A program made the translations under genes and the position numbers. This document shows positions 3,272 to 38,691 of a stretch of DNA of 38,691 bases, piece by piece; position 1 is the stretch's first letter, and every line of letters begins with the position of its first letter. Location of the stretch: NCBI GenBank assembly GCA_038065675.1, contig JBBTQM010000025.1, positions 1 through 38,691 on the forward strand, in the 5' to 3' direction. The notes under the pieces are model-generated. The model did no database searches, was not told where the DNA came from, and saw only the letters and a list, made by a program, of their open reading frames with translations. Origin of the DNA: Patescibacteria group bacterium (GTDB taxonomy: Bacteria > Patescibacteriota > Minisyncoccia > Phycocordibacterales > VMEP01).

Positions 3272-5440
3272 TTATTTAACTGGCCACTCTTCTATTATAA
3301 GCGGTGTTTTTTCGCGCGGCAGGCGCCTCCAGATTGCTTCCGTAACGAAGGGGATAAAAGGATGAAGCGACTTGAGATCAAGCGTAAGCATTTCGTAAAG
3401 AAGCGCCAGCCGCGAAGAGCGCACCGATTCCGCAAACTCTTTTAATATCGGCTTTGATTCTTCTATTATTTTGTCCGCGAAAGTGTGCCAAAGATGGTGA
3501 TAAAGTTTTTCTCCGGCGAGATAGAATTTGAAATCTTCAATATCTTTCGTCACGCCCTTCAATAATTTAAGGAATGAGTTTTTTATTTTCGCGTCTTTGG
3601 CGTTTAATTTGATTTTTTTTGAGCGCGGCATGTTCTCCGTATTTTCAAGGACGAATCTCGCGACGTTCCAAATTTTATTCGCAAAGTGCTTGTACCCGCG
3701 TATTTTATCCTCGGAGAGTTTTGAATCATTCCCCGGCGCGGTGCCGATTATGAGAGAAAGGCGCGTGGCATCGGCGCCGTATTTTTCCGCCATATCCACC
3801 GGGTCTATTATGTTGCCGAGGGATTTTGACATTTTTCTCCCTTGCGCGTCGCGGACGAGTCCGTGAAGATAAACGTTCTTGAACGGCACAACTCCCAAAA
3901 GATAAGTACTCATGAGTATCATGCGCGCAACCCAGAAGAAAAGTATGTCGTAGCCGGTTTCAAGCACGTCGGTCGGGTGATATGTTTTCAAGTCGGCTGT
4001 TTTTTCCGGCCAGCCGAGCGTGGAGAAAGTCCAGAGGCCTGAAGAGAACCATGTGTCCAGCGTGTCGGGGTCTTGTTCCCATCCGTCGCCTGTCGGTTTT
4101 TCGCCGACTTTCGTTTCTTTTCCCATATACCAAACCGGCACACGATGTCCGAACCAAATCTGCCGCGATATGCACCAGTCGCGCAGTTCGTTTATCCAGT
4201 GGAAATATATTTTTTCAAAGCGTTTCGGGACGATTTTTATGGCTCCGCTTTTTACGGCGTGCGACATCAATTTTTTCAAAGTAACCGGCGCGCCTTTTTT
4301 AATTCCCTTAAGGCCGGAGTGGGGGAATTTGAATTCTTTATTTACATTGACGAACCATTGGAGCATTATTTGCGGCTCAATGGCTCCGCCGCCGCGGCTA
4401 TTTATTGCAACGCTATGCGAATAATTTTCATCGATTTTTTCAATAAGCCCTTTTGAGCGGAGTTTTTCCACGATAAGAGGGCGCGCTTTTTTTATGTGCG
4501 TGCCGGCGAATTCTTGGGCTACGGGCAGGAGTTTCCCTTTCAAATCTATGATTTGCTCTTTGTCCAAATTATGCCTTTCGGCGATTTCAAAGTCGGCGGA
4601 ATCGTGCCACGGGGTTATGGTCATAACTCCCGTTCCGAAGTCCATGTCAATCGCGGAGTCTTTTATAATCGTTGCCGTAATTTTTCCGTTTATCCATTCA
4701 ACTTCTATTTTTTCTCCGTGATTCCACTTGGCGTATCGCTTGTCTTTCGGGTGCATGACGACATATTTGTCGCCGAACTTCGTTTCCGGACGCGCCGTGC
4801 CGATGGTGAACGGCCCGTATTTCAGGTAGTAGAACGGCGCTTTTTCTTCGCGGCGCTCTATTTCTATGTCGGAAACGTTTGTTTGAAGTTTCGGGTCCCA
4901 GTTGACGATGCGCGCGCCGCGGTAAATGAGCCCGTCTTCGTACATGCGCGCGAAGGCGGTTCTGACGGCCAGATTGCGCTTTTCATCAAGAGTGTACGCT
5001 TCGCGGCTCCAATCAACCGATGAACCCATGCGCTTTATTTGCCCGACAATTGTGTCGTGGCTTTCTTTGGCGAATTTCTCGACTTGTTTCAAAAATTCTT
5101 CGCGTCCCAAATCGTGGCGGGTTTTGTTTTCTTTTTTGTAAAGAATTTCTTCAACTTTCGTCTGCGTGGCAATGGCGGCGTGGTCCGTGCCGGGGAGCCA
5201 CAGAGTTTTAAATCCACGCATGCGTTTGAATCGTATGAGGATGTCTTCAATCGCAAGCATGGCGGCATGCCCCATGTGAAGCGTTCCGGTAACGTTCGGA
5301 GGCGGGAGAATTATGGAAAACGGTTTTTTATGCCGCGCCGGAAGATTGTCGGGATTTAGAAAACCGGATTTTTCCCAGTATGAGTATATTGATTCCTCCT
5401 CGGCTTTCGGGTCGTAGGGTTTCAGAAATTTATCGTCCAT
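3272..5440 (-). CDS. valS: Valine--tRNA ligase (short form, 722 aa)
   Basis: Class I aaRS. PPPNVTGTLHMGHA (HIGH) and KMSKSLGN (KMSKS) motifs. Editing-domain pattern GTARPETKFGD. No C-terminal coiled-coil extension. Confidence 0.85.
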   Translation of the reverse strand: MDDKFLKPYDPKAEEESIYSYWEKSGFLNPDNLPARHKKPFSIILPPPNVTGTLHMGHAAMLAIEDILIRFKRMRGFKTLWLPGTDHAAIATQTKVEEILYKKENKTRHDLGREEFLKQVEKFAKESHDTIVGQIKRMGSSVDWSREAYTLDEKRNLAVRTAFARMYEDGLIYRGARIVNWDPKLQTNVSDIEIERREEKAPFYYLKYGPFTIGTARPETKFGDKYVVMHPKDKRYAKWNHGEKIEVEWINGKITATIIKDSAIDMDFGTGVMTITPWHDSADFEIAERHNLDKEQIIDLKGKLLPVAQEFAGTHIKKARPLIVEKLRSKGLIEKIDENYSHSVAINSRGGGAIEPQIMLQWFVNVNKEFKFPHSGLKGIKKGAPVTLKKLMSHAVKSGAIKIVPKRFEKIYFHWINELRDWCISRQIWFGHRVPVWYMGKETKVGEKPTGDGWEQDPDTLDTWFSSGLWTFSTLGWPEKTADLKTYHPTDVLETGYDILFFWVARMILMSTYLLGVVPFKNVYLHGLVRDAQGRKMSKSLGNIIDPVDMAEKYGADATRLSLIIGTAPGNDSKLSEDKIRGYKHFANKIWNVARFVLENTENMPRSKKIKLNAKDAKIKNSFLKLLKGVTKDIEDFKFYLAGEKLYHHLWHTFADKIIEESKPILKEFAESVRSSRLALLYEMLTLDLKSLHPFIPFVTEAIWRRLPREKTPLIIEEWPVK

Positions 5441-7620: not shown

Positions 7621-8181
7621 TTACTTTTCAAATTTTCCTATTACCCACTCAAACTCGGTTTGCCAGTCCCTAGTCGGCGGACATGACCAACCGGGGCTTC
7701 CGGGGTAAGTTCCGTTCGACGTTTCCATGCCGCGTACGCCGAGAACATAATAATTTCCGCGGGTGGTGGGACAACCGGAATTTCCGGCGGGGTAGAGATA
7801 GTACGCGTAGCCGCCGCAACCGCCGGTTGCTATCGGGTCGCTTGGGGTCCTTTGCATGAAATTAGCCGCCTCTATCGGCTGCATGAATAAATCGGAGCTT
7901 CCCGGCCCGCCGTTTCGCCCGCCGTCCCATCCTCCGCATATATCATCGCCGTCGGTATTGCTCGGATACTGGCCGTTTTTATCGTAGTAAAACTCGAGAG
8001 CTATTTGAAGCTGCTTCATGTCGGACAGGCGCTGTGCGTCCCTTGCTTTTTTCTTGGCCGTGTTTAAGCTCGCCAGAACAATACTTGAAATGAGGCTAGT
8101 TATGGCTATTACCACAAGAAGCTCTATTAAAGTAAATCCTCCATTTTTTGCCGTGCTATCCTTTTTGAGCTTATTGGGCAT
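7621..8181 (-). CDS. Type IV pilin / pseudopilin with prepilin N-terminal methylation motif
   Basis: N-terminus KNGGFTLIELLVVIAITSLI is a class III signal peptide (G|FTLIE). 186 aa. Confidence 0.85.
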   Translation of the reverse strand: MPNKLKKDSTAKNGGFTLIELLVVIAITSLISSIVLASLNTAKKKARDAQRLSDMKQLQIALEFYYDKNGQYPSNTDGDDICGGWDGGRNGGPGSSDLFMQPIEAANFMQRTPSDPIATGGCGGYAYYLYPAGNSGCPTTRGNYYVLGVRGMETSNGTYPGSPGWSCPPTRDWQTEFEWVIGKFEK

Positions 8182-8590: not shown

Positions 8591-9547
8591 TTGATAATGA
8601 GCAAAAAATTGATAAAATCGGGAATTTTGGGGGTTTTACTATTGCCTTTCTTCGCTTTTGGCCAAACGGCGCTCCCAAGCGCAGGGCTTACTCCGGAGAG
8701 CAATCTTTATTTCTTCGACAGGCTGGGGGAGACTATCCGCGAACTTTTGACCTTCAGCAAAGAGGGAAAAGCGCGGCTTGAAATTTCTTTCGCCGCCGAG
8801 CGCATTGCCGAAATAAAAGTCGTTCTTGAAGAAAAAGGAGTGTCCGCGCCCGGTCTTGGGGTTGCGCAGGCGCGCCTAAGCGAGCACCTTACGGCCGCAT
8901 CTTCAATCATCAGCAAGAAAAAGGCGGCGGGGGAAGACGTAAGTTCCCTTTCGGGCGACCTTGATGACGAGCTTGAGGACCAAAAAGATGCCCTGGAAAA
9001 AGTTTTTGAAGATAAAAAGCGCGCTCTTGAAAGGAAAGAGGAAGATTTGACTAAAAAATTAAGCGCCGCCAGAAAAGCAGGGGACACGGTGCAGGTTACC
9101 GCCCTTCTTTCCGAGATTGCCGCAGTTAAGGCGGAGAAAAAGAATTTTGAGGGAGACAAAGAAGAGCAGAAAAAAGAATTTGAAAAAGCCAAAAAGAATA
9201 TAGAAAAAGAGGTAAACAAAAAAGAAAGAGCCGAAAAGGCGATTGCGGAAGCGGAAAAGGAAAAACAGGAGGCGATAAGCGAGGCATCTAAAAAGGGAAT
9301 TGTCCTTGCCGCGGATGCGTTCGCGAAATTTGACAGATTATTGGCGCAAGCGAAAGAGCTTTTCGCAAGGGAAAATTACCAGGGAGCGAAACAGCTGGCG
9401 GAGCAGGCGGAGGATTCAATTGAGGAAGAAGACGAAGATGAGACGGAAGATAATGACGAGGGCGACGCGGAAGACGACGACAAAGATGATGATGGCGAAA
9501 AAGACGATTTGGACAAAGCTCTGGACGAAATTGATAATAGGGATTAA
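8591..9547 (+). CDS. Secreted coiled-coil protein, DUF5667-like N-terminal motif, acidic C-terminal tail
   Basis: Signal peptide (LLLPFFAFGQTA). LTPESNLYFFDRLGE resembles the DUF5667 signature. Long KE-rich coiled coil. C-terminal D/E-rich tail. Confidence 0.5.
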   Translation: MIMSKKLIKSGILGVLLLPFFAFGQTALPSAGLTPESNLYFFDRLGETIRELLTFSKEGKARLEISFAAERIAEIKVVLEEKGVSAPGLGVAQARLSEHLTAASSIISKKKAAGEDVSSLSGDLDDELEDQKDALEKVFEDKKRALERKEEDLTKKLSAARKAGDTVQVTALLSEIAAVKAEKKNFEGDKEEQKKEFEKAKKNIEKEVNKKERAEKAIAEAEKEKQEAISEASKKGIVLAADAFAKFDRLLAQAKELFARENYQGAKQLAEQAEDSIEEEDEDETEDNDEGDAEDDDKDDDGEKDDLDKALDEIDNRD

Positions 9548-13878: not shown

Positions 13879-13965
13879 CGGAGATGGGAGGATTTGAACC
13901 TCCGATAAGGTTACCCCTATGCCACATTTCGAGTGTGGTGCCTTCAACCACTCAGCCACATCTCC
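13879..13965 (-). tRNA. tRNA-Ser (anticodon CGA), long variable arm
   Basis: Reverse complement GGAGATGTGGCTGAGTGGTTGAAGGCACCACACTCGAAATGTGGCATAGGGGTAACCTTATCGGAGGTTCAAATCCTCCCATCTCCG. Anticodon loop CTCGAAA. Confidence 0.8.
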
Positions 13966-14167
13966 TCGTTTAACTCGTCGTTGCGGCTGAGTGCCTCCTC
14001 GGCACCCCTATGGCCTGCCTCGCGCGCCGGCATCGGCCATTTCCGCCTCAAGGCGAAATCGGGATGAAATATGAAGCAGTTCATATTTCATAGCCACATC
14101 TCCAATTTAATGCTTAAAATACTAGCATTTTGAGAAAAAAATGCTATATTTCTTACTATTCTTCTTG

Positions 14168-14239
14168 GCCCTATCGTCTAACGGTTAGGACATGAGCTTT
14201 TCAAGCTCAGAATCGGGGTTCGATTCCCCGTAGGGTCAT
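14168..14239 (+). tRNA. tRNA-Glu (anticodon TTC)
   Basis: Acceptor GGCCCTA/TAGGGTC. Anticodon stem TGAGC/GCTCA with loop TTTTCAA. T-arm CGGGG-TTCGATT-CCCCG. Confidence 0.8.
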
Positions 14240-15626: not shown

Positions 15627-17318
15627 GTGTCTATAAAACTAGTCAAGGAAGAAATAGGGCGATTTATTTCAGGTACGGAATCAGAAATTTTTTGCATTAG
15701 TGGTAAGTGGGGTGTAGGTAAGACCTACAGTTGGAACTATTTCTTAAAGAGTGCAAAAGATGCTGAAAGGATAGGTTTAAAGCGATATGCCTACGTATCT
15801 CTTTTTGGCCTAAAGTCTCTTAACGAACTGAAGTACGCATTATACGAAGCGACCAAACCAGTTGAAAAAATTGGCGAAGATCCAGAATGGGAAGATTTTG
15901 AATTAAAAAACACGGGCGAGACTTTTCTGAGGCGGACACGTTTAGTGATCTCTCGACTAAGTCAGTTGCCTATTGTTCAAGGCTATATAGGGCTGACTGA
16001 AAGCATTCTTTTTTACTTTGTCGGGAAGCAGCTGATTTGTATAGACGACCTAGAAAGAGCTGGGAATGGTTTGGATGTTATGGATGTTTTTGGTCTAATT
16101 TCTTTTTTGAAGGAGCAGCGCCATTGCAAGGTTGTCCTACTTCTCAACAAAGACGAGATAGATAAAGAACAGAGGGCTGTTTTTGACAAGCAATTTGAGA
16201 AAGTTATAGATGAGGACCTTCAATTTAGTCCAACCCCACAAGAAGCGGCTGATATAGTTTTTCCACAACCTGAGGGAATAAAGAAAGACCTTCACCGCCA
16301 CTGTTTAACTCTGGGGGTAATCAATATTCGCGTAATAAAAAAGATAGAGAAAATCGCCTTTAGGTTAGAGGAGATTCTTAAAGATAAATACGCAGATTTG
16401 CTATATCAAGCCATTCACTCATCAACTCTTTTTGCTTGGTCAAAATATCAAAAAGATAAAGAACCACCACCTTTTGACTTTCTAACAAATATAAGTCGGC
16501 TTCTTGGGCTTTTTCTCGATAAAGAGAAGGCAACCGCCGACGACCAAAGATGGAAAGCCCTAATGGCAGAATATAAATTTGGGAATGTAGATGATTTCGA
16601 TTTAGTTATTTATGACGCTGTTCAAAGTGGTATTTTCGACAAAGATGTTTTACTCGCAGCTGCTGAAAAACAGCGCCAGGGAGTCACGAAAAATAAGCAA
16701 GAACAGGTAATTCATGACACTTGGGATCTATATCACGGCTCTTTCGACGATAATGAAAGTGGCGTAATGGATCAAATTTTTAAAGTATCTTTAGAAAATA
16801 TTAAAGTGATTAGCCCATCTAACTTGGAGGGCACCATCAGTACCTTAAAGGAATTTGACCGAAAAAAAGAAGCGGCGGAACTCATTAAGAAATATATAGA
16901 TGAACGCGGGTCCGAAAAAGAACTTTTCGATCTTAAAAATGATCATTTTAGTCGGAATATTAAAGACCCCGACATTCTCCGTGAGTTCGGAAAGAAGAGA
17001 GCAGAATTCGTAGACAATAGGAACCCCGCAGATGTTCTAGAAACCATGGTGATGAACCGCGGGTGGAGTCTGGAAGACGAGGAACTTATTGATAAGTTAT
17101 CGACGGACGACTTTTATAAGATCTTCAAGGGCGAAAAAGGAGATCGAATGCATCGGGTAATTAGAGGCGCTTTGCAGTTAAATCGAAAAGAGTCAGATGC
17201 CAGCAAAGAACTAGGCTCTATTTCCGAAAGAGCCGTCAAGGCACTAGAGAAAATTGCTGGAGAAAGTCGACTGAACGCACGGAGGGTCGCGGCACAAGGA
17301 ATCAAGCTAAAAGACTAG
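15627..17318 (+). CDS. KAP-family P-loop NTPase
   Basis: N-terminal FCISGKWGVGKTYSWNYFL Walker A in the characteristic KAP context (GeWGsGKT). Walker B-like LICIDDLER. 563 aa. GTG start. Lower GC than core genes. Confidence 0.7.
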   Translation: MSIKLVKEEIGRFISGTESEIFCISGKWGVGKTYSWNYFLKSAKDAERIGLKRYAYVSLFGLKSLNELKYALYEATKPVEKIGEDPEWEDFELKNTGETFLRRTRLVISRLSQLPIVQGYIGLTESILFYFVGKQLICIDDLERAGNGLDVMDVFGLISFLKEQRHCKVVLLLNKDEIDKEQRAVFDKQFEKVIDEDLQFSPTPQEAADIVFPQPEGIKKDLHRHCLTLGVINIRVIKKIEKIAFRLEEILKDKYADLLYQAIHSSTLFAWSKYQKDKEPPPFDFLTNISRLLGLFLDKEKATADDQRWKALMAEYKFGNVDDFDLVIYDAVQSGIFDKDVLLAAAEKQRQGVTKNKQEQVIHDTWDLYHGSFDDNESGVMDQIFKVSLENIKVISPSNLEGTISTLKEFDRKKEAAELIKKYIDERGSEKELFDLKNDHFSRNIKDPDILREFGKKRAEFVDNRNPADVLETMVMNRGWSLEDEELIDKLSTDDFYKIFKGEKGDRMHRVIRGALQLNRKESDASKELGSISERAVKALEKIAGESRLNARRVAAQGIKLKD

Positions 17319-31894: not shown

Positions 31895-31995
31895 AACAAC
31901 CGATGACTGACAACCCACAACTAACAATGAAAATTAGTAAAATAAGGTATCATATTATTGTAGGTCATTGGTTGTGAGTTGTTGGTTGTAGGTTA
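31895..31995. repeat. GT-rich imperfect hairpin repeat, family member 2 (…caacaaccgatgactgacaacccacaactaacaatg … cattggttgtgagttgttggttgtaggtt)
   Basis: Long imperfect inverted repeat after gyrA. Shares gttgtgagttgttggtt with 26214-26238. Confidence 0.6.
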
Positions 31996-32006: not shown

Positions 32007-32534
32007 ATGGCGTTCGTACTTCCCGAAGAAATAATAAAAAATCTCTTTTTGAATGAAGGCATGCATGTTGCCGATTTCGGCGCCGGAACAGGAGCTTTCT
32101 CTATCGCGGCGGGAAAACTTATCGGTTCGGGGCATGTATACGCCATAGAGGTGGTGTCCGACCTTCTCCCGAAAATAAAATCCGACGCGGCGGCGCGCGG
32201 GGTTTTTAATGTGGAAGTTATACGCGGAGACATAGAAACCGTGGGCGGGACTACTCTTTCCGCGAAGTCGGTTGACCGCGTAATCATTTCAAACGTTCTT
32301 TTCCAGGCGGAAGACAAGGAGGGCGTGGCGAAAGAAGCGGCGCGGGTGTTGAAGCCAAATGGCCTGGCGCTTGTCGTGGACTGGTCGGCGTCTTACGGCG
32401 GACTGGGGCCTGCGGATAAAGATGTTTTTCCTAAAGATAAAGCCGTAGCCCTTTTTTTGAATAACGGGTTTGCTTTGGCAAACGAAATTTCCGCCGGAGA
32501 TTTCCATTATGGGTTCGTCGTGCGCCGGCTTTAA
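32007..32534 (+). CDS. Class I SAM-dependent methyltransferase
   Basis: Motif I VADFGAGTGAFS. Motif post-I YAIEV. LKPNGLALVVDW. Confidence 0.75.
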   Translation: MAFVLPEEIIKNLFLNEGMHVADFGAGTGAFSIAAGKLIGSGHVYAIEVVSDLLPKIKSDAAARGVFNVEVIRGDIETVGGTTLSAKSVDRVIISNVLFQAEDKEGVAKEAARVLKPNGLALVVDWSASYGGLGPADKDVFPKDKAVALFLNNGFALANEISAGDFHYGFVVRRL

Positions 32535-32537
32535 ATT

Positions 32538-33845
32538 ATGAAACAAACAACATTTCAACTTATTGTTCTCGTAGTTTTCGGGTTTTTGGCCGCCGCGTCT
32601 ATTTTTGTATTTTCCGGAATTATCCCGATTTTTAAATCAAGCGATAAAATATCCGGCGAGGTTGTGATTTGGGGAACAATTCCCCAAACGAAAATTTTAA
32701 AACTTATAGAGGAAGTTGGCAGGCAAAACAGCGGGCTTCAGATTTTTTATGTTGAAAAATCAGAGGCGAATTTCGACAAAGATTTTATAGAAGCCCTTGC
32801 CGCGGGGAAAGGCCCGGACGCATTCTTTTTTTCTCAGGATTTTGCTTTCAAATACGCCGACAAATTATTCGTGATTCCTTACAGCTCGCTTTCGGAGCGG
32901 GATTTCAGGAATACTTACGTTGACGAGGCTGAACTTTTTTTGTCCAAAAACGGGGTTTTAGGGCTTCCGATTTATGTTGACCCGATGGTTATGTATTGGA
33001 ACAGAAGCATTTTTTCTTCCTCGGGAATTTCAAAGCCTCCGTCGTATTGGGATGAATTCGCGGCAATGGTTCCCCGCATCGTGAAGCGTGATAAATCCGG
33101 CAATATCACAAGTTCCGCCGTTGCGCTCGGGGAATGGAAAAATATTTCTCACGCCAAAGATATTTTGGCCACTCTTATTATTCAGGCTGGGGCGGGGATT
33201 GTGGAACGCGCTTCAGGTTACGGCGAAGAAAAGGCTAAAGTTTCAATTTTAACCACTCAAAATGTATCGGTTCGTCCGGCCGATTCAGCGCTTAGATTTT
33301 TTACGGAATTTTCGGACGCGGTAAAACCGACTTATTCCTGGAACAAATCGCTTTCAAATTCAACCGATAGTTTTGTGGCGGAGCGCTTGGGACTTTATTT
33401 CGGCTATGCGTCGGAATTCTTGCCGATGCGCTCCAAAAATCCCCACTTGAATTTTGACGTTGTTTCTATGCCCCAAGCTCGCGGCTCGGCAACCAAAACA
33501 AATTTTGGCATGGTTTATTCCATAGGAGTAACGCGGGCCGCAAAAAATCCGGAAGCGGCCTTTTTTGCGGCAACTAAAATATCGGCGCCCCAGTTTTCAG
33601 GAAAACTAGCCGAGAATTTATTTTTAGCGCCCGCGCGCCGAGATTTGCTTGCCGTGAAGAACGAAAATTCGTATCTTCAGTTTTTCAATGAATCAGCTCT
33701 TACGGCGCGCGCCTGGCTTGACCCGATGCCGGAATTAACCGATGCTATTTTTAAAGAGATGATTGAAAGCGTGGTATCCGGCAGCGCGCGCGTTTCCGAG
33801 GCGGTTATGACGGCAAATGAGGAACTTTCCAGACTTATAAGATGA
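32538..33845 (+). CDS. Extracellular solute-binding protein-like (ABC-type SBP family 1 fold), membrane-anchored, orphan
   Basis: N-terminal TM anchor. GEVVIWGTIP....FYVEKSE....EALAAGKGPDAFFFSQDF pattern is typical of SBP_bac_1/8. No permease or ATPase genes adjacent. Confidence 0.6.
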   Translation: MKQTTFQLIVLVVFGFLAAASIFVFSGIIPIFKSSDKISGEVVIWGTIPQTKILKLIEEVGRQNSGLQIFYVEKSEANFDKDFIEALAAGKGPDAFFFSQDFAFKYADKLFVIPYSSLSERDFRNTYVDEAELFLSKNGVLGLPIYVDPMVMYWNRSIFSSSGISKPPSYWDEFAAMVPRIVKRDKSGNITSSAVALGEWKNISHAKDILATLIIQAGAGIVERASGYGEEKAKVSILTTQNVSVRPADSALRFFTEFSDAVKPTYSWNKSLSNSTDSFVAERLGLYFGYASEFLPMRSKNPHLNFDVVSMPQARGSATKTNFGMVYSIGVTRAAKNPEAAFFAATKISAPQFSGKLAENLFLAPARRDLLAVKNENSYLQFFNESALTARAWLDPMPELTDAIFKEMIESVVSGSARVSEAVMTANEELSRLIR

Positions 33846-34216
33846 TGAAAAAAATAACTATCGCCATTTTTTCGTTTTTGCCGCTTTTTGCGCTTGCCGC
33901 CGGGCTTGTCCCGTGCGGCGGGGTTGATACCAATGGCGCGCCGGAACCGGCGTGTAATTTTGACCAGCTGGTCATCATGGCTCAGAGGATAATCCGATTC
34001 CTCATTTTAATCGGCGGGTCTTTGGGCGCGGTTGCTTTCGCTTATGCCGGCTGGCTATATCTCACGAGCGGAGGGAACCCGGGGAAAGTTACTTCCGCAA
34101 AAGACATTTTTATCAAAGTTGTTCTCGGATTTATATTCATGCTTGCCGCATGGCTTATTGTGAGCCTTATAGTAAATACGCTGGGGTATCAAGGAGTGAA
34201 TCTTTTGAAAGGTTGA
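33842..34216 (+). CDS. Secreted two-helix pilin-like protein (TrbC/VirB2- or T4SS-pilin-like), paralog 1
   Basis: Signal peptide ending ALA|AG. Then two hydrophobic helices separated by a short charged loop (…AFAYAGWLYLTSGGNPGKV…VVLGFIFMLAAWLIVSLIVNTLG). Confidence 0.55.
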   Translation: MMKKITIAIFSFLPLFALAAGLVPCGGVDTNGAPEPACNFDQLVIMAQRIIRFLILIGGSLGAVAFAYAGWLYLTSGGNPGKVTSAKDIFIKVVLGFIFMLAAWLIVSLIVNTLGYQGVNLLKG

Positions 34217-34248
34217 AAAATTAAATATAATGTTTAGAGACAACCATA

Positions 34249-34629
34249 ATGGCAATAATTAAATCATCAAAAAAGTTTTTAGGGAAAATTACCGCAACTA
34301 TTTTTACATTGTTCGCGCCGATTTTGGCGTTTGCCCAAGGATATGGGGGAACCCCCGGCGCGAAATTACAAAATCCCCTTAAGGATATAAACGACATTCC
34401 TACTCTGATAGTGGCGATTCTTGACGTGGTGGTCAAGGTGGGCGGCTATATTGCCGTACTCGCCCTTATATACGCCGGTTTTATGTTCGTGAAAGCGCGC
34501 GGTAACCGAGAAGAGCTTGAAACGGCTAAGCGTTCATTTTTTTACATAGTCATAGGAGTGGCGGTTCTCCTTGCCGCCAAAGCCATATCTTTGGGGATAA
34601 GCGCCACTATCAGTAATATTGTGAGATAA
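34249..34629 (+). CDS. Secreted two-helix pilin-like protein, paralog 2
   Basis: Signal peptide ending AFAQ|GY. Helix-loop-helix layout parallel to paralog 1 (…LALIYAGFMFVKARGNREELETAKRSFFYIVIGVAVLLAAKAISLG). Confidence 0.55.
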   Translation: MAIIKSSKKFLGKITATIFTLFAPILAFAQGYGGTPGAKLQNPLKDINDIPTLIVAILDVVVKVGGYIAVLALIYAGFMFVKARGNREELETAKRSFFYIVIGVAVLLAAKAISLGISATISNIVR

Positions 34630-34636
34630 TAAAAGT

Positions 34637-35020
34637 ATGAAGAGAATATCATTGTATTTTGTAACTCTTGGAGTTCTTATCCCTCAGGTCGCTCACGCCC
34701 AGGTGTGCTCTCTTTCAACCATTACTTCTTTTATAAATTGCATCACCGATATCATCTCCGGCTCAATTATCCGTCTTCTGGTCGCCCTTGCCGTCGTATT
34801 TTTTCTTTGGGGCGCGGCAAAATTTCTCAGAAATGCCGAGGATCCCGGGAAACGCGAGGAGGGAAGAATGTTTATGCTTTACGGGGTTATCGCCCTTTTT
34901 GTCATTGTTGCCGTTTGGGGATTAGTGGGGATTCTTGCCAATACATTCGGTATTGATGTCCGCCAGCCGCAGTTTCCCGGAGGAGGCGGCAAGAGTGGCT
35001 ACTGGTCCGACGTATTATAA
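34637..35020 (+). CDS. Secreted two-helix pilin-like protein, paralog 3
   Basis: Signal peptide ending AHAQ|V. Core LVALAVVFFLWGAAKFL-RNAEDPGKREEGR-MFMLYGVIALFVIVAVWGLVGILANTFGI. Gly-rich C-terminal tail. Confidence 0.55.
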   Translation: MKRISLYFVTLGVLIPQVAHAQVCSLSTITSFINCITDIISGSIIRLLVALAVVFFLWGAAKFLRNAEDPGKREEGRMFMLYGVIALFVIVAVWGLVGILANTFGIDVRQPQFPGGGGKSGYWSDVL

Positions 35021-35177
35021 TTTCAACAGGGGAGGAATCCACAGCTTCATTAGCTTAAGAAAGCCGTAATGTAGTATAATAAATGGAGGTATTGGGGAGT
35101 TTTTGCGGCAGGCGCGGCTTCGTTCCGATGTCCGGCAAAATTGTTTATAATTATTATCATTAATAAATTATTGTAGT

Positions 35178-35510
35178 ATGAAAAAAGTATTTGCAGTAGG
35201 TTCATCATTTATACTTCCGGCCATCGCGCTCGCGCAAGATGCCGGTTCGGTTCTCCAGACGGTTAGCAACATTTTCGGTTATTTGGTTCCGATTCTTATT
35301 TCTCTCGCCGTCCTATGGTTTTTCTGGGGACTTGTAGAATATCTCCGCGGAGGTGGCGAAGATAAAGAAAAAGGCAAGCAGACCATGATTTACGGCATTA
35401 TCGCGCTTTTCGTCATGGTATCCGTATGGGGATTGGTTGGGCTTATCGGCAATACGTTCGGTATACAGCCAGGCGGCGGAGCTATAATCCCGAACATCCC
35501 AAGGATTTAA
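35178..35510 (+). CDS. Secreted two-helix pilin-like protein, paralog 4
   Basis: Signal peptide ending ALAQ|D. Core ISLAVLWFFWGLVEYL-RGGGEDKEKGKQ-TMIYGIIALFVMVSVWGLVGLIGNTFGI is near-identical in pattern to paralog 3. Confidence 0.55.
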   Translation: MKKVFAVGSSFILPAIALAQDAGSVLQTVSNIFGYLVPILISLAVLWFFWGLVEYLRGGGEDKEKGKQTMIYGIIALFVMVSVWGLVGLIGNTFGIQPGGGAIIPNIPRI

Positions 35511-35552
35511 TTAAGCGAATAAATAACGCATACAGGCAAGTAGAAAAAATAT

Positions 35553-35852
35553 ATGGGATTTATCTCGATTGCGCACGCGCAGTCTCTTGCTCCGTTTGAT
35601 AGCTTTTTGAGCAGAGTAAGCTATTACATCCTAAATCCGCTGATAGGACTCTTTTTCGCTCTTGCTCTCATGTATTTTATTTGGGGGGTTGTCGTTTTTA
35701 TTAAAAATACTGACAATGAAACTGAAAAAGAGACAGGTAAAAATCACATGATATGGGGGATTATCGGGCTCTTCATAATGATAGGAGTTTACGGAATAAT
35801 CGGGCTTATCACAGGGACATTCGCGCCTGGCGTGCAGGTTCCGAGAGGATAA
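35553..35852 (+). CDS. Secreted two-helix pilin-like protein, paralog 5
   Basis: Short signal peptide ending AHAQ|S. Core FALALMYFIWGVVVFIKNTDNETEKETGKNHMIWGIIGLFIMIGVYGIIGLITGTF. Confidence 0.5.
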   Translation: MGFISIAHAQSLAPFDSFLSRVSYYILNPLIGLFFALALMYFIWGVVVFIKNTDNETEKETGKNHMIWGIIGLFIMIGVYGIIGLITGTFAPGVQVPRG

Positions 35853-35865
35853 ACGAAATTGATTA

Positions 35866-35898
35866 TTAAAAACAAAATCCGGTCTTGAAGGCCGGATT
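35866..35898. terminator. Bidirectional terminator (aaaatccgg-tcttgaagg-ccggatttt plus T-run) between the pilin-like array and the convergent minus-strand operon
   Basis: Hairpin flanked by an A-run upstream and a T-run downstream. Confidence 0.65.
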
Positions 35899-35978
35899 TT
35901 GTTTTTTCCGGACAAAAGAAAAAGGCAAGCTTGCGCCTGCCTCTGTCCATTTCCGCAAATTCTCGGAAACGGGAAGAA

Positions 35979-36674
35979 CTACTTCGGTTCATGATACACC
36001 TTGGTTGGTACCATTTCCCCTTGGTGCTTTGCCTTGAACCTGAAGGCGAAGTTGGCAATGTTGTTGTCGCCGAGCGGGGTTGGTTGTCTCGGGCAGAGCT
36101 CGAAAACTCTCTCCCTGACGTTTTTCACCAGGATGCACTTTTCCGGCTCTATGCGGAGCCAGCTAGATGGCGGGGTGATTACTTGTTCCGACCATCTTTC
36201 GAACACCGCTACGACAGGGATTACCGTGACGCGGCTTGCCGCCTTTGATTTTTCCCCATGGTCGGTTGTCGGCATTTTGCCAACCAGGAAGAGGGCAAGC
36301 GGTGCGATTAGAAGCACCCCAACCCAGAACGCTTTTTCTCCGGAACCGAACTTCCAAGTGAGCGCGACGGCGATGATTGCCGCCTGGCTCGCGAGGAAGA
36401 GATTCCGGTTGCCGGCCCACTCCTTCCAGAGAGGAACGTCGTCCTGAAACAACCACAGCATCCACAGGAAGAGGAGGTAGATGGCGAGAAATGTGAATAA
36501 GCCACTAATCCCCTTGAGGGAGCCAAACAAGTTCCACTTGTCTTTGCCGGCCTTGTCTCCCTCCTTTCCTTTAGGCAAATATTCCATCAGGCGTTGCACA
36601 GAGACCGTGGATGACGCTTGCCAGATAAGTATTGCCGCAAGAAGAACGAGGAAACCTATATAGAGGATACTCAT
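35979..36674 (-). CDS. Membrane protein co-transcribed with the SPFH gene (possible NfeD-like partner)
   Basis: 231 aa. About 4 N-terminal TM helices plus a soluble C-terminal domain. Start overlaps the stop of the upstream SPFH gene (36671-36674). The NfeD assignment rests on gene context only. Confidence 0.35.
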   Translation of the reverse strand: MSILYIGFLVLLAAILIWQASSTVSVQRLMEYLPKGKEGDKAGKDKWNLFGSLKGISGLFTFLAIYLLFLWMLWLFQDDVPLWKEWAGNRNLFLASQAAIIAVALTWKFGSGEKAFWVGVLLIAPLALFLVGKMPTTDHGEKSKAASRVTVIPVVAVFERWSEQVITPPSSWLRIEPEKCILVKNVRERVFELCPRQPTPLGDNNIANFAFRFKAKHQGEMVPTKVYHEPK

Positions 36675-37915
36675 GATTTCCTCCCTGTGCTACCGCCATC
36701 CGGCTGTTGCTTGAGAGATTCGCCGAGCGATGTACCAATACCAAGCAAGTCTGCGAAGCCACCCGAGCCGGCAATGATTGTTTTTTGGCCAGGGTTCAAA
36801 GTAATCGCTCGTGCTGCTTCTGTGCCGATTACTGCTTCAGCGCTTACCTCAAGCGACCCCTTAATCTTCGCAAGACCATCTGCTCTGTTAGTTAGAACAG
36901 CAAGTTCAGCCGCCGCGTCGCCCCTGCCGTGAAGTTCACGTTTTTGTCTTTCTGCGTCTCCCCCTATCACGGTGGCTTTCGCTTCGAGGGTGGCTATTGG
37001 TACTTTCCCGATGGCTGTGTTCAGGTCACGGTGGAAATTGATGAGCTTTATCTGTGCATCATGAATGGTTAAACCCCAGTCGTTTCCCTCCTCGACATCA
37101 GATTCTCCCACCATTTCTCCTACCAAGCGCTGAATTTCTTTTTTCAACATCTGATTGTAGTACTGAAGATTTCTTAGCACTATTGCCGGTGTAACTTGGG
37201 CAAATTCACGCAAAGCCATTGCTACTGCGGTATCTTGGATTTGCCGAATTGCTTCCACCATACTGCCTACTCTGGTCAGAAACGTTATATATCTTCCTTT
37301 TTTTATCCGTATGCGGATGATAATAACAGTTTCTGCTGTGACGCGGACATTGAGAGGGTCGTCTTCTTCGGCTGGTAGAAAATCCGTCGGCAAACCTTTT
37401 GGAAGTTTTTTACTGGGATGCCCAAAAGGGATCCTTATTGGAGGGAAGAACCCTTTAGGTACTTCTTTCTTGTCTTCTTCACGGAATATGTGTTCCGGAT
37501 CGGCGGGGAGTTCTTTTTGCATTACCAGCGCGGTTTCTTTTTGGAGCTGGCATATGAACAACGGAACAAACACAAGACCAGAACGGACTTCGGCGACAGG
37601 CCGGTTGAACAAAAGAATTGCCCCGAGTTCAGTCGGCTTGACGGTCCGGAAACTGGCGAATGTGTATAGAACTTGTGCGAGGAAAAGTACCTCGCCCCGG
37701 TTCCATTTTTCTCCGAAGACTTCCACAAAGTGTCCGCCGAGCCAAAGCACGGCTTCCAGTGCAAAAAGCACTCCATAGGTAATCCCAACTACCAGCCAAA
37801 ACCGCGAAGTTTTCGATTTTTCAGCCACAGGCGTCTCCTTTGCCTTTTTGCAGGCGAGAATAATCGTACTCCAAAATCCTGAAAGTTTTGATTTCCAAAT
37901 CTTCCACCAAGCCAT
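36671..37915 (-). CDS. SPFH/band-7 (stomatin-prohibitin-flotillin-HflK/C) domain membrane protein
   Basis: N-terminal TM helices. SPFH-like core with a flotillin/HflK-type C-terminal coiled region (…EAKATVIGGDAERQKRELHGRGDAAAELAVL…TEAARAITLNPGQKTIIAGSGG). GC higher than the window average. Confidence 0.55.
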   Translation of the reverse strand: MAWWKIWKSKLSGFWSTIILACKKAKETPVAEKSKTSRFWLVVGITYGVLFALEAVLWLGGHFVEVFGEKWNRGEVLFLAQVLYTFASFRTVKPTELGAILLFNRPVAEVRSGLVFVPLFICQLQKETALVMQKELPADPEHIFREEDKKEVPKGFFPPIRIPFGHPSKKLPKGLPTDFLPAEEDDPLNVRVTAETVIIIRIRIKKGRYITFLTRVGSMVEAIRQIQDTAVAMALREFAQVTPAIVLRNLQYYNQMLKKEIQRLVGEMVGESDVEEGNDWGLTIHDAQIKLINFHRDLNTAIGKVPIATLEAKATVIGGDAERQKRELHGRGDAAAELAVLTNRADGLAKIKGSLEVSAEAVIGTEAARAITLNPGQKTIIAGSGGFADLLGIGTSLGESLKQQPDGGSTGRKS

Positions 37916-38067: not shown

Positions 38068-38139
38068 GGCGTAGTGGCGAAGTGGTAACGCTTCGGTCTG
38101 CAAAACCGACACGCGCGGGTTCGATTCCCGCCTACGCCT
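38068..38139 (+). tRNA. tRNA-Cys (anticodon GCA), U discriminator
   Basis: Acceptor GGCGTAG/CTACGCC. Anticodon stem TCGGT/ACCGA with loop CTGCAAA. T-arm GCGGG-TTCGATT-CCCGC. Confidence 0.8.
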
Positions 38140-38143
38140 CCGG

Positions 38144-38563
38144 ATGCAAAAAAATCAAAATTTTCACGTCGGTTTAAAGGCTTTCATAAACAAAAACGAT
38201 AAGCTTCTTATTCTTCGCGAGCCGGACCGCGGCAATGATTTTGGCAAATGGGGTCTGCCTGGCGGGCGCATACAGGAAGCCGAATCAAACACACCGCTTG
38301 ATAATGTTCTTAAAAGAGAAATATTTGAGGAATGTGGGAGGATAACCGTAAAAATAGGAGACATAGAAGGAGTGTGGAGGAGTCGTTCTCGCGGCGGTGT
38401 TTCCGTCTTCTTAATAGGGTTTAAATGCAATTATGTAAATGGTGATGTTATCCTTAACGAAGAACACGTTGAACACAAATGGATTGCAAAAGACGAGGCG
38501 GGGAAATATACTTTCGCGAGTGGTTATAAAGAAGCGATTGACAGTTATTTTTTAAAAAAATAA
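38144..38563 (+). CDS. NUDIX hydrolase
   Basis: Nudix box GLPGGRIQEAESNTPLDNVLKREIFEECG (Gx5Ex7REUxEExGU). Confidence 0.8.
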   Translation: MQKNQNFHVGLKAFINKNDKLLILREPDRGNDFGKWGLPGGRIQEAESNTPLDNVLKREIFEECGRITVKIGDIEGVWRSRSRGGVSVFLIGFKCNYVNGDVILNEEHVEHKWIAKDEAGKYTFASGYKEAIDSYFLKK

Positions 38564-38566
38564 TAC

Positions 38567-38648
38567 GCTCGGGTGGCGGAATGGTATACGCGGAAGACTT
38601 AAAATCTTCTGCCGATAAGGCTTGTGGGTTCGAGTCCCACCCCGAGCA
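38567..38648 (+). tRNA. tRNA-Leu (anticodon TAA), long variable arm
   Basis: Acceptor GCTCGGG/CCCGAGC. Anticodon stem GAAGA/TCTTC with loop CTTAAAA. T-arm GTGGG-TTCGAGT-CCCAC. Confidence 0.8.
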
Positions 38649-38691
38649 CAAGCAAAATATTTTTAAAATAAAAATATTTTGTTATAGTGCT

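Follow-up and report, generated by a model that had tools for sequence, protein, structure and literature searches.

The array of five small genes described here, P1 to P5, lies in a stretch of 38,691 nucleotides (nt) from a Patescibacteria group bacterium (assembly GCA_038065675.1, contig JBBTQM010000025.1), which was analysed at its full length and is called the window below. On the evidence of sequence profiles, its products are five non-redundant members of PF18895, the VirB2/TrbC-like pilin family of type IV secretion systems (T4SS). The array is translationally coupled, via an ATGA overlap, to the gene of a solute-binding protein (SBP), a coupling that the first-pass annotation of the window had overlooked. 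The reading that we favour, with somewhat more confidence than even odds would warrant, is that each of the five paralogs contributes its own, non-redundant subunit to a single heteromeric pilus or conduit of the T4SS type, which has the SBP as its partner and depends on a distal VirB4 machine. The genes of the module and the signals around them are as follows.

32007-32534, + strand: class I S-adenosylmethionine (SAM)-dependent methyltransferase, 175 amino acids (aa); Pfam Methyltransf_31/25/11; stops 3 nt before the SBP start
32538-33845, + strand: membrane-anchored SBP of the sugar/MalE type, 435 aa; Pfam SBP_bac_1, 64.8 bits (cut-off 26 bits)
33842-34216, + strand: P1, VirB2-like pilin paralog, 124 aa; predicted signal-peptide cleavage after A19 (ALA/A); Cys25/Cys38 pair in the mature N-terminus
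34249-34629, + strand: P2, VirB2/TrbC-like pilin paralog, 126 aa; predicted signal-peptide cleavage after A29 (AFA/Q)
34637-35020, + strand: P3, pilin paralog, 127 aa; predicted signal-peptide cleavage after A21 (AHA/Q); Cys24/Cys35 pair; Gly-rich C-terminal tail
35021-35177, + strand: AT-rich P3-P4 spacer, GC 0.38; probable internal promoter for P4-P5
35178-35510, + strand: P4, pilin paralog, 110 aa; predicted signal-peptide cleavage after A19 (ALA/Q)
35553-35852, + strand: P5, pilin paralog, 99 aa; mini-leader MGFISIAHA/Q instead of a Sec signal peptide
35868-35906, no strand assigned: bidirectional intrinsic terminator; perfect 18-bp stem, 3-nt loop, A-run 5' and U-run 3'
35921-35944, - strand: second terminator-like hairpin, for the convergent operon of the 231-aa and SPFH-like genes; 10 pairs, 5 of them G-C, then a T-run

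Five VirB2-like pilins

The first-pass annotation had placed five consecutive genes on the + strand, and the listing of open reading frames (ORFs) agrees exactly with its coordinates; ORFs such as P1 to P5 are far beyond what chance would produce. The hydropathy scan shows a leader that ends in AxA, followed by two long hydrophobic segments around a short loop rich in D, E, K, R and G. The two hydrophobic helices and the short charged loop, proposed from the outset, are thus visible in the scan, and they are also present in AlphaFold2 models. The cleavage sites given above were read off the sequence (AxA) and do not come from a signal-peptide predictor. A Sec-type signal peptide had been attributed to all five proteins: P1 to P4 have the n, h and c regions and the AxA end, but P5 has only MGFISIAHA before AxA. 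The mature proteins were said to measure 70-90 aa, whereas about 90-106 aa are predicted. Similarly, the motifs described as recurrent in the array (FLWG/FFWG/FIWG and YG(V/I)IALFV..VWGLVG..NTFGI) are found in P3 to P5 but not in P1 and P2, which have AYAGW/IYAGF.

The pairwise aa identity is 31% for P1-P2, 45% for P3-P4, 45% for P4-P5 and 36% for P3-P5. The paralogs form two groups, P1-P2 and P3-P5, and the identity between groups is 22-32%. The GC content of the array is 0.446, and that of third codon positions (GC3) is 0.45-0.52 in the pilin genes. In a comparison of orthogroups, array positions 1, 3 and 4 typically have two Cys residues in the mature N-terminus, and position 5 has no such pair.

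All five proteins score above the gathering cut-off of PF18895 T4SS_pilin (26.6 bits), with 32.9, 32.0, 45.9, 43.6 and 35.3 bits for P1 to P5, and the precomputed Pfam matches on the source contigs agree with these scores. P2 also passes PF04956 TrbC/VirB2 (40.2 bits, E 4e-10; cut-off 27.9 bits), as do its orthologs in relatives (30.1 bits in the related locus L021), whereas P3 and P5 fall short of the cut-off (16.8 and 15.7 bits) and nothing is found for P1 and P4. P5 passes NF045849 with 44.9 bits (NCBIfam cut-off 40 bits); this is the Mbov_0395 family, a pilin-like conjugal transfer protein of Mycoplasma integrative and conjugative elements. P3, P2 and P4 remain below this cut-off (37.3, 23.1 and 22.5 bits) and P1 has no match. 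These results bear out the initial assignment to TrbC/VirB2-type pilins or T4SS pilins of the candidate phyla radiation. The NCBI annotation (locus tags AAB355_02680-02700) names P3 "pilin" and P2 "TrbC/VirB2 family protein". The type IV prepilin N_methyl motif has no match in P1-P5 in Pfam. A profile made from the pilin alignment retrieves 55,949 family members among 1.84 billion representatives; against the sequences of the PDB its best match is the pKM101 pilin TraM (8cw4), and it is weak (E 0.089).

The AlphaFold2 model of P3 (pLDDT 78) has helices at residues 4-21 (the signal peptide), 29-41, 44-65 and 70-103, and that of P5 (pLDDT 85) at residues 13-51 and 56-90. A Foldseek search of the PDB with the P3 model gives no significant match (best E 0.84, to ATP synthase c and channels), a result which is uninformative because a helical hairpin with a signal-peptide helix is generic. 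The predicted hairpin fold is compatible with the VirB2 family yet not diagnostic, and membership rests on the sequence profiles.

P5 has nine residues (MGFISIAHA) ahead of AxA, and the length of its leader is 9-11 residues (window 35553-35582). A longer leader is excluded because an in-frame TAG is present at 35541-35543, 9 nt 5' of the ATG. The position-5 orthologs of related loci (L008-L083) have a conserved mini-leader of 10-15 residues, MDLFSTK(V/I)AYA, and longer leaders are also excluded by in-frame stops. The mini-leader has neither a basic n-region nor a hydrophobic core, and in a few species the position-5 pilin is devoid of it, the start codon being at the mature N-terminus. This suggests that position-5 pilins may insert by their N-tail, independently of a Sec signal, and that cleavage would be optional.

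Polyproteins in which 3-17 tandem VirB2-like hairpins (up to about 34 transmembrane (TM) helices) stand behind a single signal peptide were also observed. Examples are P0281 (1775 aa), P0310, P0371, P0359, P0257 and P0241. No mention of them was found in the searched text of the recent survey of Patescibacteria arrays by Quinonero-Coronel et al. (2025, PMC12102498).

Coupling to a solute-binding protein

The stop codon of the SBP gene overlaps the start codon of P1 (ATGA at 33842-33845). The nearest relatives of the SBP with a solved structure are carbohydrate SBPs (4r9f, 1.4e-9; MalE-like), which bind sugars and oligosaccharides. The protein has an N-terminal TM helix and no lipobox. The end of this anchor, FVFSGIIPIF (residues 23-32; window 32604-32633), is one of the top two 10-mers for conservation in 71 orthologs (0.86, compared to a mean of 0.65), on a par with the best parts of the binding domain. 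Such conservation is unusual for a passive anchor, which suggests that the SBP makes a specific intramembrane contact. No permease or ATPase of the ATP-binding cassette (ABC) type is present in the operon or in the conserved neighbourhood of the SBP, which is therefore an "orphan" by its context.

A search of the GTDB species representatives with the SBP alignment yielded 70 loci with SBP identities of 31-45%, their titles being Nomurabacteria, Paceibacterota, Minisyncoccia or Kaiserbacteria. Three to seven same-strand pilin domains, detected with a custom pilin HMM, lie directly 3' of the SBP in 69/69 informative loci; the seventieth locus stops at the SBP stop codon and is hence uninformative. 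In a wider search for SBP homologs, the matches listed are orthologs of at least 41% identity.

The clustering of ORFs from 73 loci gives the order S1 (- strand), LacB_3, an 82-aa TM protein, gyrA, methyltransferase, SBP and pilins. On the 3' side of the pilins there are one to three convergent genes that vary between species, then a TIG-domain surface protein, RbfA, IF-2 and DUF4446. Look-ups of close and distant pilin homologs agree with this order: the block Lactamase_B_3, gyrA, 175-aa SAM-methyltransferase, SBP_bac_1 and pilins recurs in eight further contexts. The window comes from a metagenome-assembled genome; a 247,637-bp contig of GCA_964361895.1 contains the same region, as do assemblies from Hainich groundwater. 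The methyltransferase gene, which is directly 5' of the SBP gene in 69/73 loci, is probably the first of the operon, and a promoter-like site precedes it (31907-31934). Its linkage suggests a role in the system. The module is an ancient, vertically inherited core-genome feature of Paceibacteria, also called Parcubacteria (Nomura-, Lloyd-, Niyogi- and Kaiserbacteria-type).

Fixed positions and purifying selection

For the matrix of position classes, the pilin domains were labelled solely by their rank in the array. The best cross-species match is in the same rank class for 367/371 domains, and 363/371 score higher with an ortholog elsewhere than with any paralog of their own array. The duplication is thus old rather than recent, as had been proposed at first. 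P1 belongs to the position-1 orthogroup and P2 to the position-2 orthogroup in 64/64 arrays each, P4 belongs to the penultimate-position orthogroup in 62/64, and the pattern 1-2-3-4-5 is identical in 21 species. In comparisons with the window, the five pilin orthogroups reach median identities of 37-48%; the SBP reaches 41%, the methyltransferase 43% and GyrA 68%.

The first-pass annotation described the family as "diversifying" and recommended dN/dS among the paralogs as a check. Measured pairwise against the relative at locus L008 (proteins 77-88% identical), dN/dS is 0.15 for P1, 0.09 for P2, 0.15 for P3, 0.07 for P4, 0.08 for P5 and 0.12 for the SBP; these values, obtained by the method of Nei and Gojobori, are approximate, dS being near saturation (0.8-1.4). 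P4 is among the best-conserved genes in this comparison (87% aa identity). The pilins are under purifying selection, their rate is not above that of neighbouring genes, and in about 70 species each has its orthologs at a fixed position. The term "diversifying" therefore does not apply, nor does the idea, also put forward initially, that the paralogs are variable adhesion subunits.

[quoted passage not shown] Fused paralogs must stand side by side in one assembly. In some relatives, the position-1 ortholog carries an N-terminal extracellular extension of about 250 aa (e.g., L021:11286-12356, 356 aa). Such long position-1 pilins, predicted from their sequence to be 300-360 aa long, might resemble a minor pilin bearing a tip or an adhesin. 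Genes of families 30 and 39 in L015-L017, L020 and L068 were noted in the same connection.

These observations bear on the proposal that such paralogs are major pilins able to replace one another, so that antigens or host range can be varied, which has been made for Bartonella and Anaplasma and is suggested for Patescibacteria in PMC12102498. The identity between paralogs (22-45%) is indeed like that of the arrays published there (25% on average), and the number of copies in the middle of the array differs between species, so that there are three to seven domains. However, the order is fixed in 367/371 cases across about 70 species, no homogenisation is seen (363/371), and the pilins evolve at the rate of neighbouring housekeeping-linked genes, with dN/dS of 0.07-0.15. 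The paralogs are fused in relatives, and signal peptide and Cys pattern differ from one paralog to another. We consider a variation repertoire improbable.

The same data leave still less room for secreted membrane-active peptides (bacteriocin-, holin- or toxin-like) directed against a host cell, which we regard as very improbable. The products are small, hydrophobic and have signal peptides, and the lifestyle is probably episymbiotic, but there are no genes for immunity, processing or export. The family matches are to pilins, with none to bacteriocin or holin families, and deep conservation, purifying selection and fixed order are unlike toxin loci.

Finally, next to no probability remains for fragments of one degraded larger gene, or for chance ORFs, although single polypeptides with 2-17 repeats exist elsewhere. 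Each ORF has its own start and leader, and stops and gaps of 7-157 nt separate the genes. Five separate genes are found in independent assemblies, the 1-2-3-4-5 pattern is shared by 21 species, and selection is purifying. The first-pass annotation had named a degraded gene as a finding that would count against pilins; separate starts, leaders and conservation rule it out.

Two probable transcription units and the terminators

The spacer between P3 and P4 contains a -10 box, TATAAT, at 35075-35080 within TAGTATAAT (35072-35080), and a second TATAAT at 35146-35151. Across loci, the gap before the penultimate (P4-type) gene has a median of 108 nt (interquartile range 91-129), compared to medians of 4-11 nt at the other junctions. 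At the SBP-P1 junction the median gap is 4 nt, and a 4-nt overlap is frequent. The pattern TTGC..N~17..TATAAT is conserved in the spacers, and TATAAT is present in 42/53 of them. We infer from these sequence features two putative transcription units, methyltransferase-SBP-P1-P2-P3 and P4-P5.

On the 3' side of the putative promoter there is an AU-rich leader, ATTATTA..(A)GGTCG(C)..TTATTA, the core of which is found in 46/53 spacers (e.g., L046 and L066), and the background frequency of AGGTCG is 0.135 per kb. This leader might be a translation enhancer or an operator. In the window (35081-35177) and in L008, a GC-rich segment takes the place of the GGTCGC core, and the P3-P4 spacer RNA of the window has no stable fold (z = +0.6).

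An insert of about 110 nt is present in the P4 leaders of several loci (L015:13351-13483, L016:3792-3921, L031:7916-8046, L062:12863-12992 and L081:12892-13020). Because it can pair in alternative ways, the start codon being involved, it was considered as a riboswitch, but this reading was abandoned since the core CCCGTTAGAAAT recurs on both strands elsewhere in the same loci. The insert is probably a small dispersed repeat. A search of the window and five related loci with Rfam finds only tRNAs and no match for the insert.

The bidirectional terminator that had been recognised after the array is confirmed, with its 18-bp hairpin between an A-run and a U-run. The fold of 35853-35978 has a minimum free energy of -43.6 kcal/mol (z = -4.1), and 0/200 shuffled sequences are as stable.

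Distance from the T4SS core

The absence of VirB4, VirB6, VirD4 and pilus ATPase genes from the window, noticed from the start, agrees with the negative Pfam scans of its large ORFs. The published work gives some indication of where the motor could be. Table S3 of PMC12102498 lists VirB2, VirB4, TrsD and VirB3 at coding sequences (CDS) 352-356 of GCA_000989515.1, the genome of L021. For GCA_000999465.1 (L059), it lists VirB3 and TrsD at 634-635, and isolated VirB2 (T_virB2) and PrgF matches at 126-129; for GCA_001000035.1 (L038), VirB4 is at 643 and a distal VirB2 match at 606. In the second of these genomes, the CDS between two VirB2 matches is called FATA_PrgF in the table, which hints that PrgF of pCF10 is related to these pilins.

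All five proteins of the L021 array pass PF18895, yet none (0/5) appears in the available copy of Table S3, and the SBP-linked arrays of three related genomes are absent from this table or only partly listed. Table S3 seems to report PF18895 matches near virB4 only. It may be said, with caution and from what this table gives, that the T4SS core of related genomes has its own single pilin, and that the array next to the SBP constitutes a further pilin locus, at a distance from that core.

A proposed heteromeric pilus or conduit and its alternatives

We propose the following mechanism. Each of P1 to P5 would insert in the cytoplasmic membrane as a helical hairpin with both termini outside (N-out/C-out). 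For P1 to P4, insertion would use the Sec signal peptide, which signal peptidase I would cut at AxA. For P5, a short acidic N-tail would be translocated, and the leader of 9-11 residues would be either removed or kept. The five paralogs would then co-assemble into a single pilus or cell-envelope conduit, and would not form interchangeable filaments. P4 and P5 are likely the major subunits, because they have their own probable promoter and are best conserved. P1 to P3, which are co-translated with the SBP, could be minor, tip or base subunits, and in some species P1 is enlarged by a long extracellular part. The VirB4-TrsD-VirB3 machine, for which related genomes have genes elsewhere on the chromosome, would power assembly. 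The SBP may dock to the assembly as a glycan-binding receptor, an adhesin or an uptake component.

Several points weigh against this proposal. No VirB4, VirB6 or VirD4 gene is found in the 38.7-kb window, in the 10 kb to its left, or in the ±10 kb around more than 70 related arrays. Within the window, virB4 is absent from about 40 CDS upstream and 3 CDS downstream of the array, and it is absent from about 10 kb downstream in relatives. The putative link to a T4SS motor draws on homology and on other genomes. According to Table S3 of PMC12102498, a single pilin gene already adjoins VirB4 in related genomes, and the distal array could serve otherwise. Polyproteins of up to 17 repeats are hard to square with the extraction of subunits, one by one, into a dynamic pilus. 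The split into major and minor subunits and the role of the SBP are points that we infer, and the dN/dS values are approximate, as mentioned above.

The array could instead encode a T4SS-independent membrane complex, in which five hairpins (10 TM helices) and the SBP form a host-glycan receptor or uptake system and the VirB2 fold serves as a scaffold. We hold this to be possible, though unlikely. The array is always linked to the SBP and never to VirB4, the two are translationally coupled, the TM anchor of the SBP is conserved, and the module belongs to the core genome; polyproteins with up to 17 hairpins, and a separate pilin beside VirB4 in relatives, also fit this view. On the contrary, the operon contains no ABC permease, ATPase or other energiser. 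The only known role of the homologs is in pili and T4SS, there is no precedent for such a transporter, and the essential pilin series of Saccharibacteria sits inside a T4SS cluster. A heteromeric T4SS-type pilus or conduit remains the reading that we prefer.

A broader and more speculative idea, which we put forward tentatively and with similarly little confidence, is that five to seven distinct VirB2-like hairpins and a glycan-binding SBP make up a dedicated heteromeric surface organelle, separate from VirB4 and perhaps independent of it. This organelle would be an ancient core feature of Paceibacteria, devoted to host-glycan recognition or nutrient uptake, and in the poly-pilins, with their up to 17 repeats, the same assembly would be covalently joined.

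Of the envelope systems of Patescibacteria, few have been shown to be essential for epibiotic life; T4SS-type pilins are one of these, and the current view is that multi-gene arrays are variation repertoires attached to the virB4 cluster. In Paceibacteria, the largest class, the array is conserved in order, under purifying selection, part of the core genome, welded to an SBP and far from virB4. The proposal recasts the paralogs as distinct parts of one structure, names the SBP as a partner, and separates P4 and P5 from P1 to P3 as a probable split. It also suggests that published censuses centred on virB4 under-count such arrays. This kind of array is already published (PMC10633639 and PMC12102498) and annotated by NCBI, and the bare finding is not new. 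By contrast, the coupling to an SBP, the remoteness of VirB4, orthologs fixed in position and an operon divided in two seemingly have no description in the literature; an incomplete literature search found no paper on an SBP-VirB2 link in Patescibacteria. If none of these points holds, the locus is a correctly annotated, ordinary member of a known family.

Other genes of the window

The array had been described as insulated from a convergent, GC-richer pair of SPFH/NfeD-like genes. The SPFH part is weakly supported, since the 414-aa protein matches Band_7 with 24.8 bits (cut-off 23.6 bits). The 231-aa protein is a membrane protein with no significant match to NfeD or to any other Pfam family and no support in NCBIfam. 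The difference in GC content is clear for the 231-aa gene (0.533, GC3 0.668) and less so for the SPFH-like gene (0.484, compared to 0.446 for the array). The convergent genes between the array and the TIG-domain/RbfA/IF-2 block (window 35979-37915, - strand) belong to families that differ by species; the families of this variable islet are 15, 20, 21, 25-28, 33 and 35 (L008-L089).

The rest of the window is housekeeping: class I aminoacyl-tRNA synthetase, TsaD, FtsZ/FtsA, HisRS, signal peptidase I, Pth, S1 and GyrA. In a Niyogibacteria-type relative (L085:2760-6395), GyrA contains an intein (1211 aa; Intein_splicing match). The ORF at 38454-38651 (- strand) is an artefact which overlaps the last tRNA gene. 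The following features were also noted.

151-221, 745-816, 1920-1992, 13879-13965 (- strand), 14167-14238, 38068-38139 and 38567-38648: seven tRNA genes
3272-5440, - strand: class I aminoacyl-tRNA synthetase of only 722 aa; faint trace of a LeuRS editing domain
7621-8181, - strand: type IV pilin-like protein with an N_methyl motif; surface component of the type IV pilus (T4P) type, unrelated to the array
8591-9547, + strand: DUF5667 protein; T4P-type surface component, unrelated to the array
15627-17318, + strand: 563-aa P-loop protein; weak KAP_NTPase Walker-A match; follows a peptidoglycan-binding-domain protein; not VirB4 or a type IV coupling protein by Pfam

Comparison with known systems

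The closest known systems are the VirB2 arrays of Patescibacteria. In Southlakia epibionticum ML1, Wang et al. (2023, PMC10633639) found an essential series of predicted pilins inside the T4SS cluster SEML1_0006-0019. Quinonero-Coronel et al. report 441 arrays of 2-11 VirB2-like genes, with identities of 25% on average and 54% at most; an array is defined there as at least two VirB2-like genes in tandem or one non-pilin gene apart, with low identity between paralogs. These arrays are described as lying inside or near a virB4 cluster and as most abundant in Microgenomatia and Saccharimonadia. A 2025 review presents the Patescibacteria arrays as the one exception to the absence of VirB2 from monoderm T4SSs.

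The array of the window resembles them in its PF18895/PF04956 matches, its phylum, and its same-strand tandem of two-helix proteins with signal peptides and identities of about 25-45%. Under the definition of that survey it is an array, with five adjacent genes and pairwise identities of 22-45%. The setting used there for mapping, virB4 within 20 CDS (Fig. S9, ring 5), is not found in the window. The present array also differs from those published in being of the Paceibacteria type, with no nearby VirB4, coupled to an SBP and located between gyrA and genes of the rbfA/infB type. [quoted passage not shown]

The conjugative pilins of Gram-negative bacteria (Agrobacterium T-pilus, RP4 TrbC, F TraA, pKM101 TraM and R388 TrwL) have the same layout, with a signal peptide and two helices around a charged loop, and TrwL and TraM are among the structural and sequence matches of the array pilins. 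However, in Gram-negative T4SSs a single major pilin gene accompanies VirB3-B11 in a virB/tra operon, whereas the window, from an organism of monoderm type, has five distinct paralogs with no adjacent T4SS. The archaeal Ced/Ted pili (8dft from Pyrobaculum calidifontis and 8dfu from Aeropyrum pernix) share 11-13% identity with the array pilins; unlike the array, they are made of a single pilin, import DNA and have no described linkage to an SBP.

The two-TM proteins of the MPF-FATA systems (Mbov_0395 family NF045849 and pCF10 PrgF) are similar in that P5 passes NF045849 and P3 nearly does, but they are encoded by single genes in mobile conjugative elements, whereas the array is a chromosomal, vertically inherited set of five genes. 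Lastly, the VirB2 arrays of Bartonella and Anaplasma phagocytophilum result from a tandem amplification of virB2-like genes, as in the window. Antigenic variation or adaptation to the host is the role proposed for them; for the array of the window, positional orthology and low dN/dS argue against such a mode.

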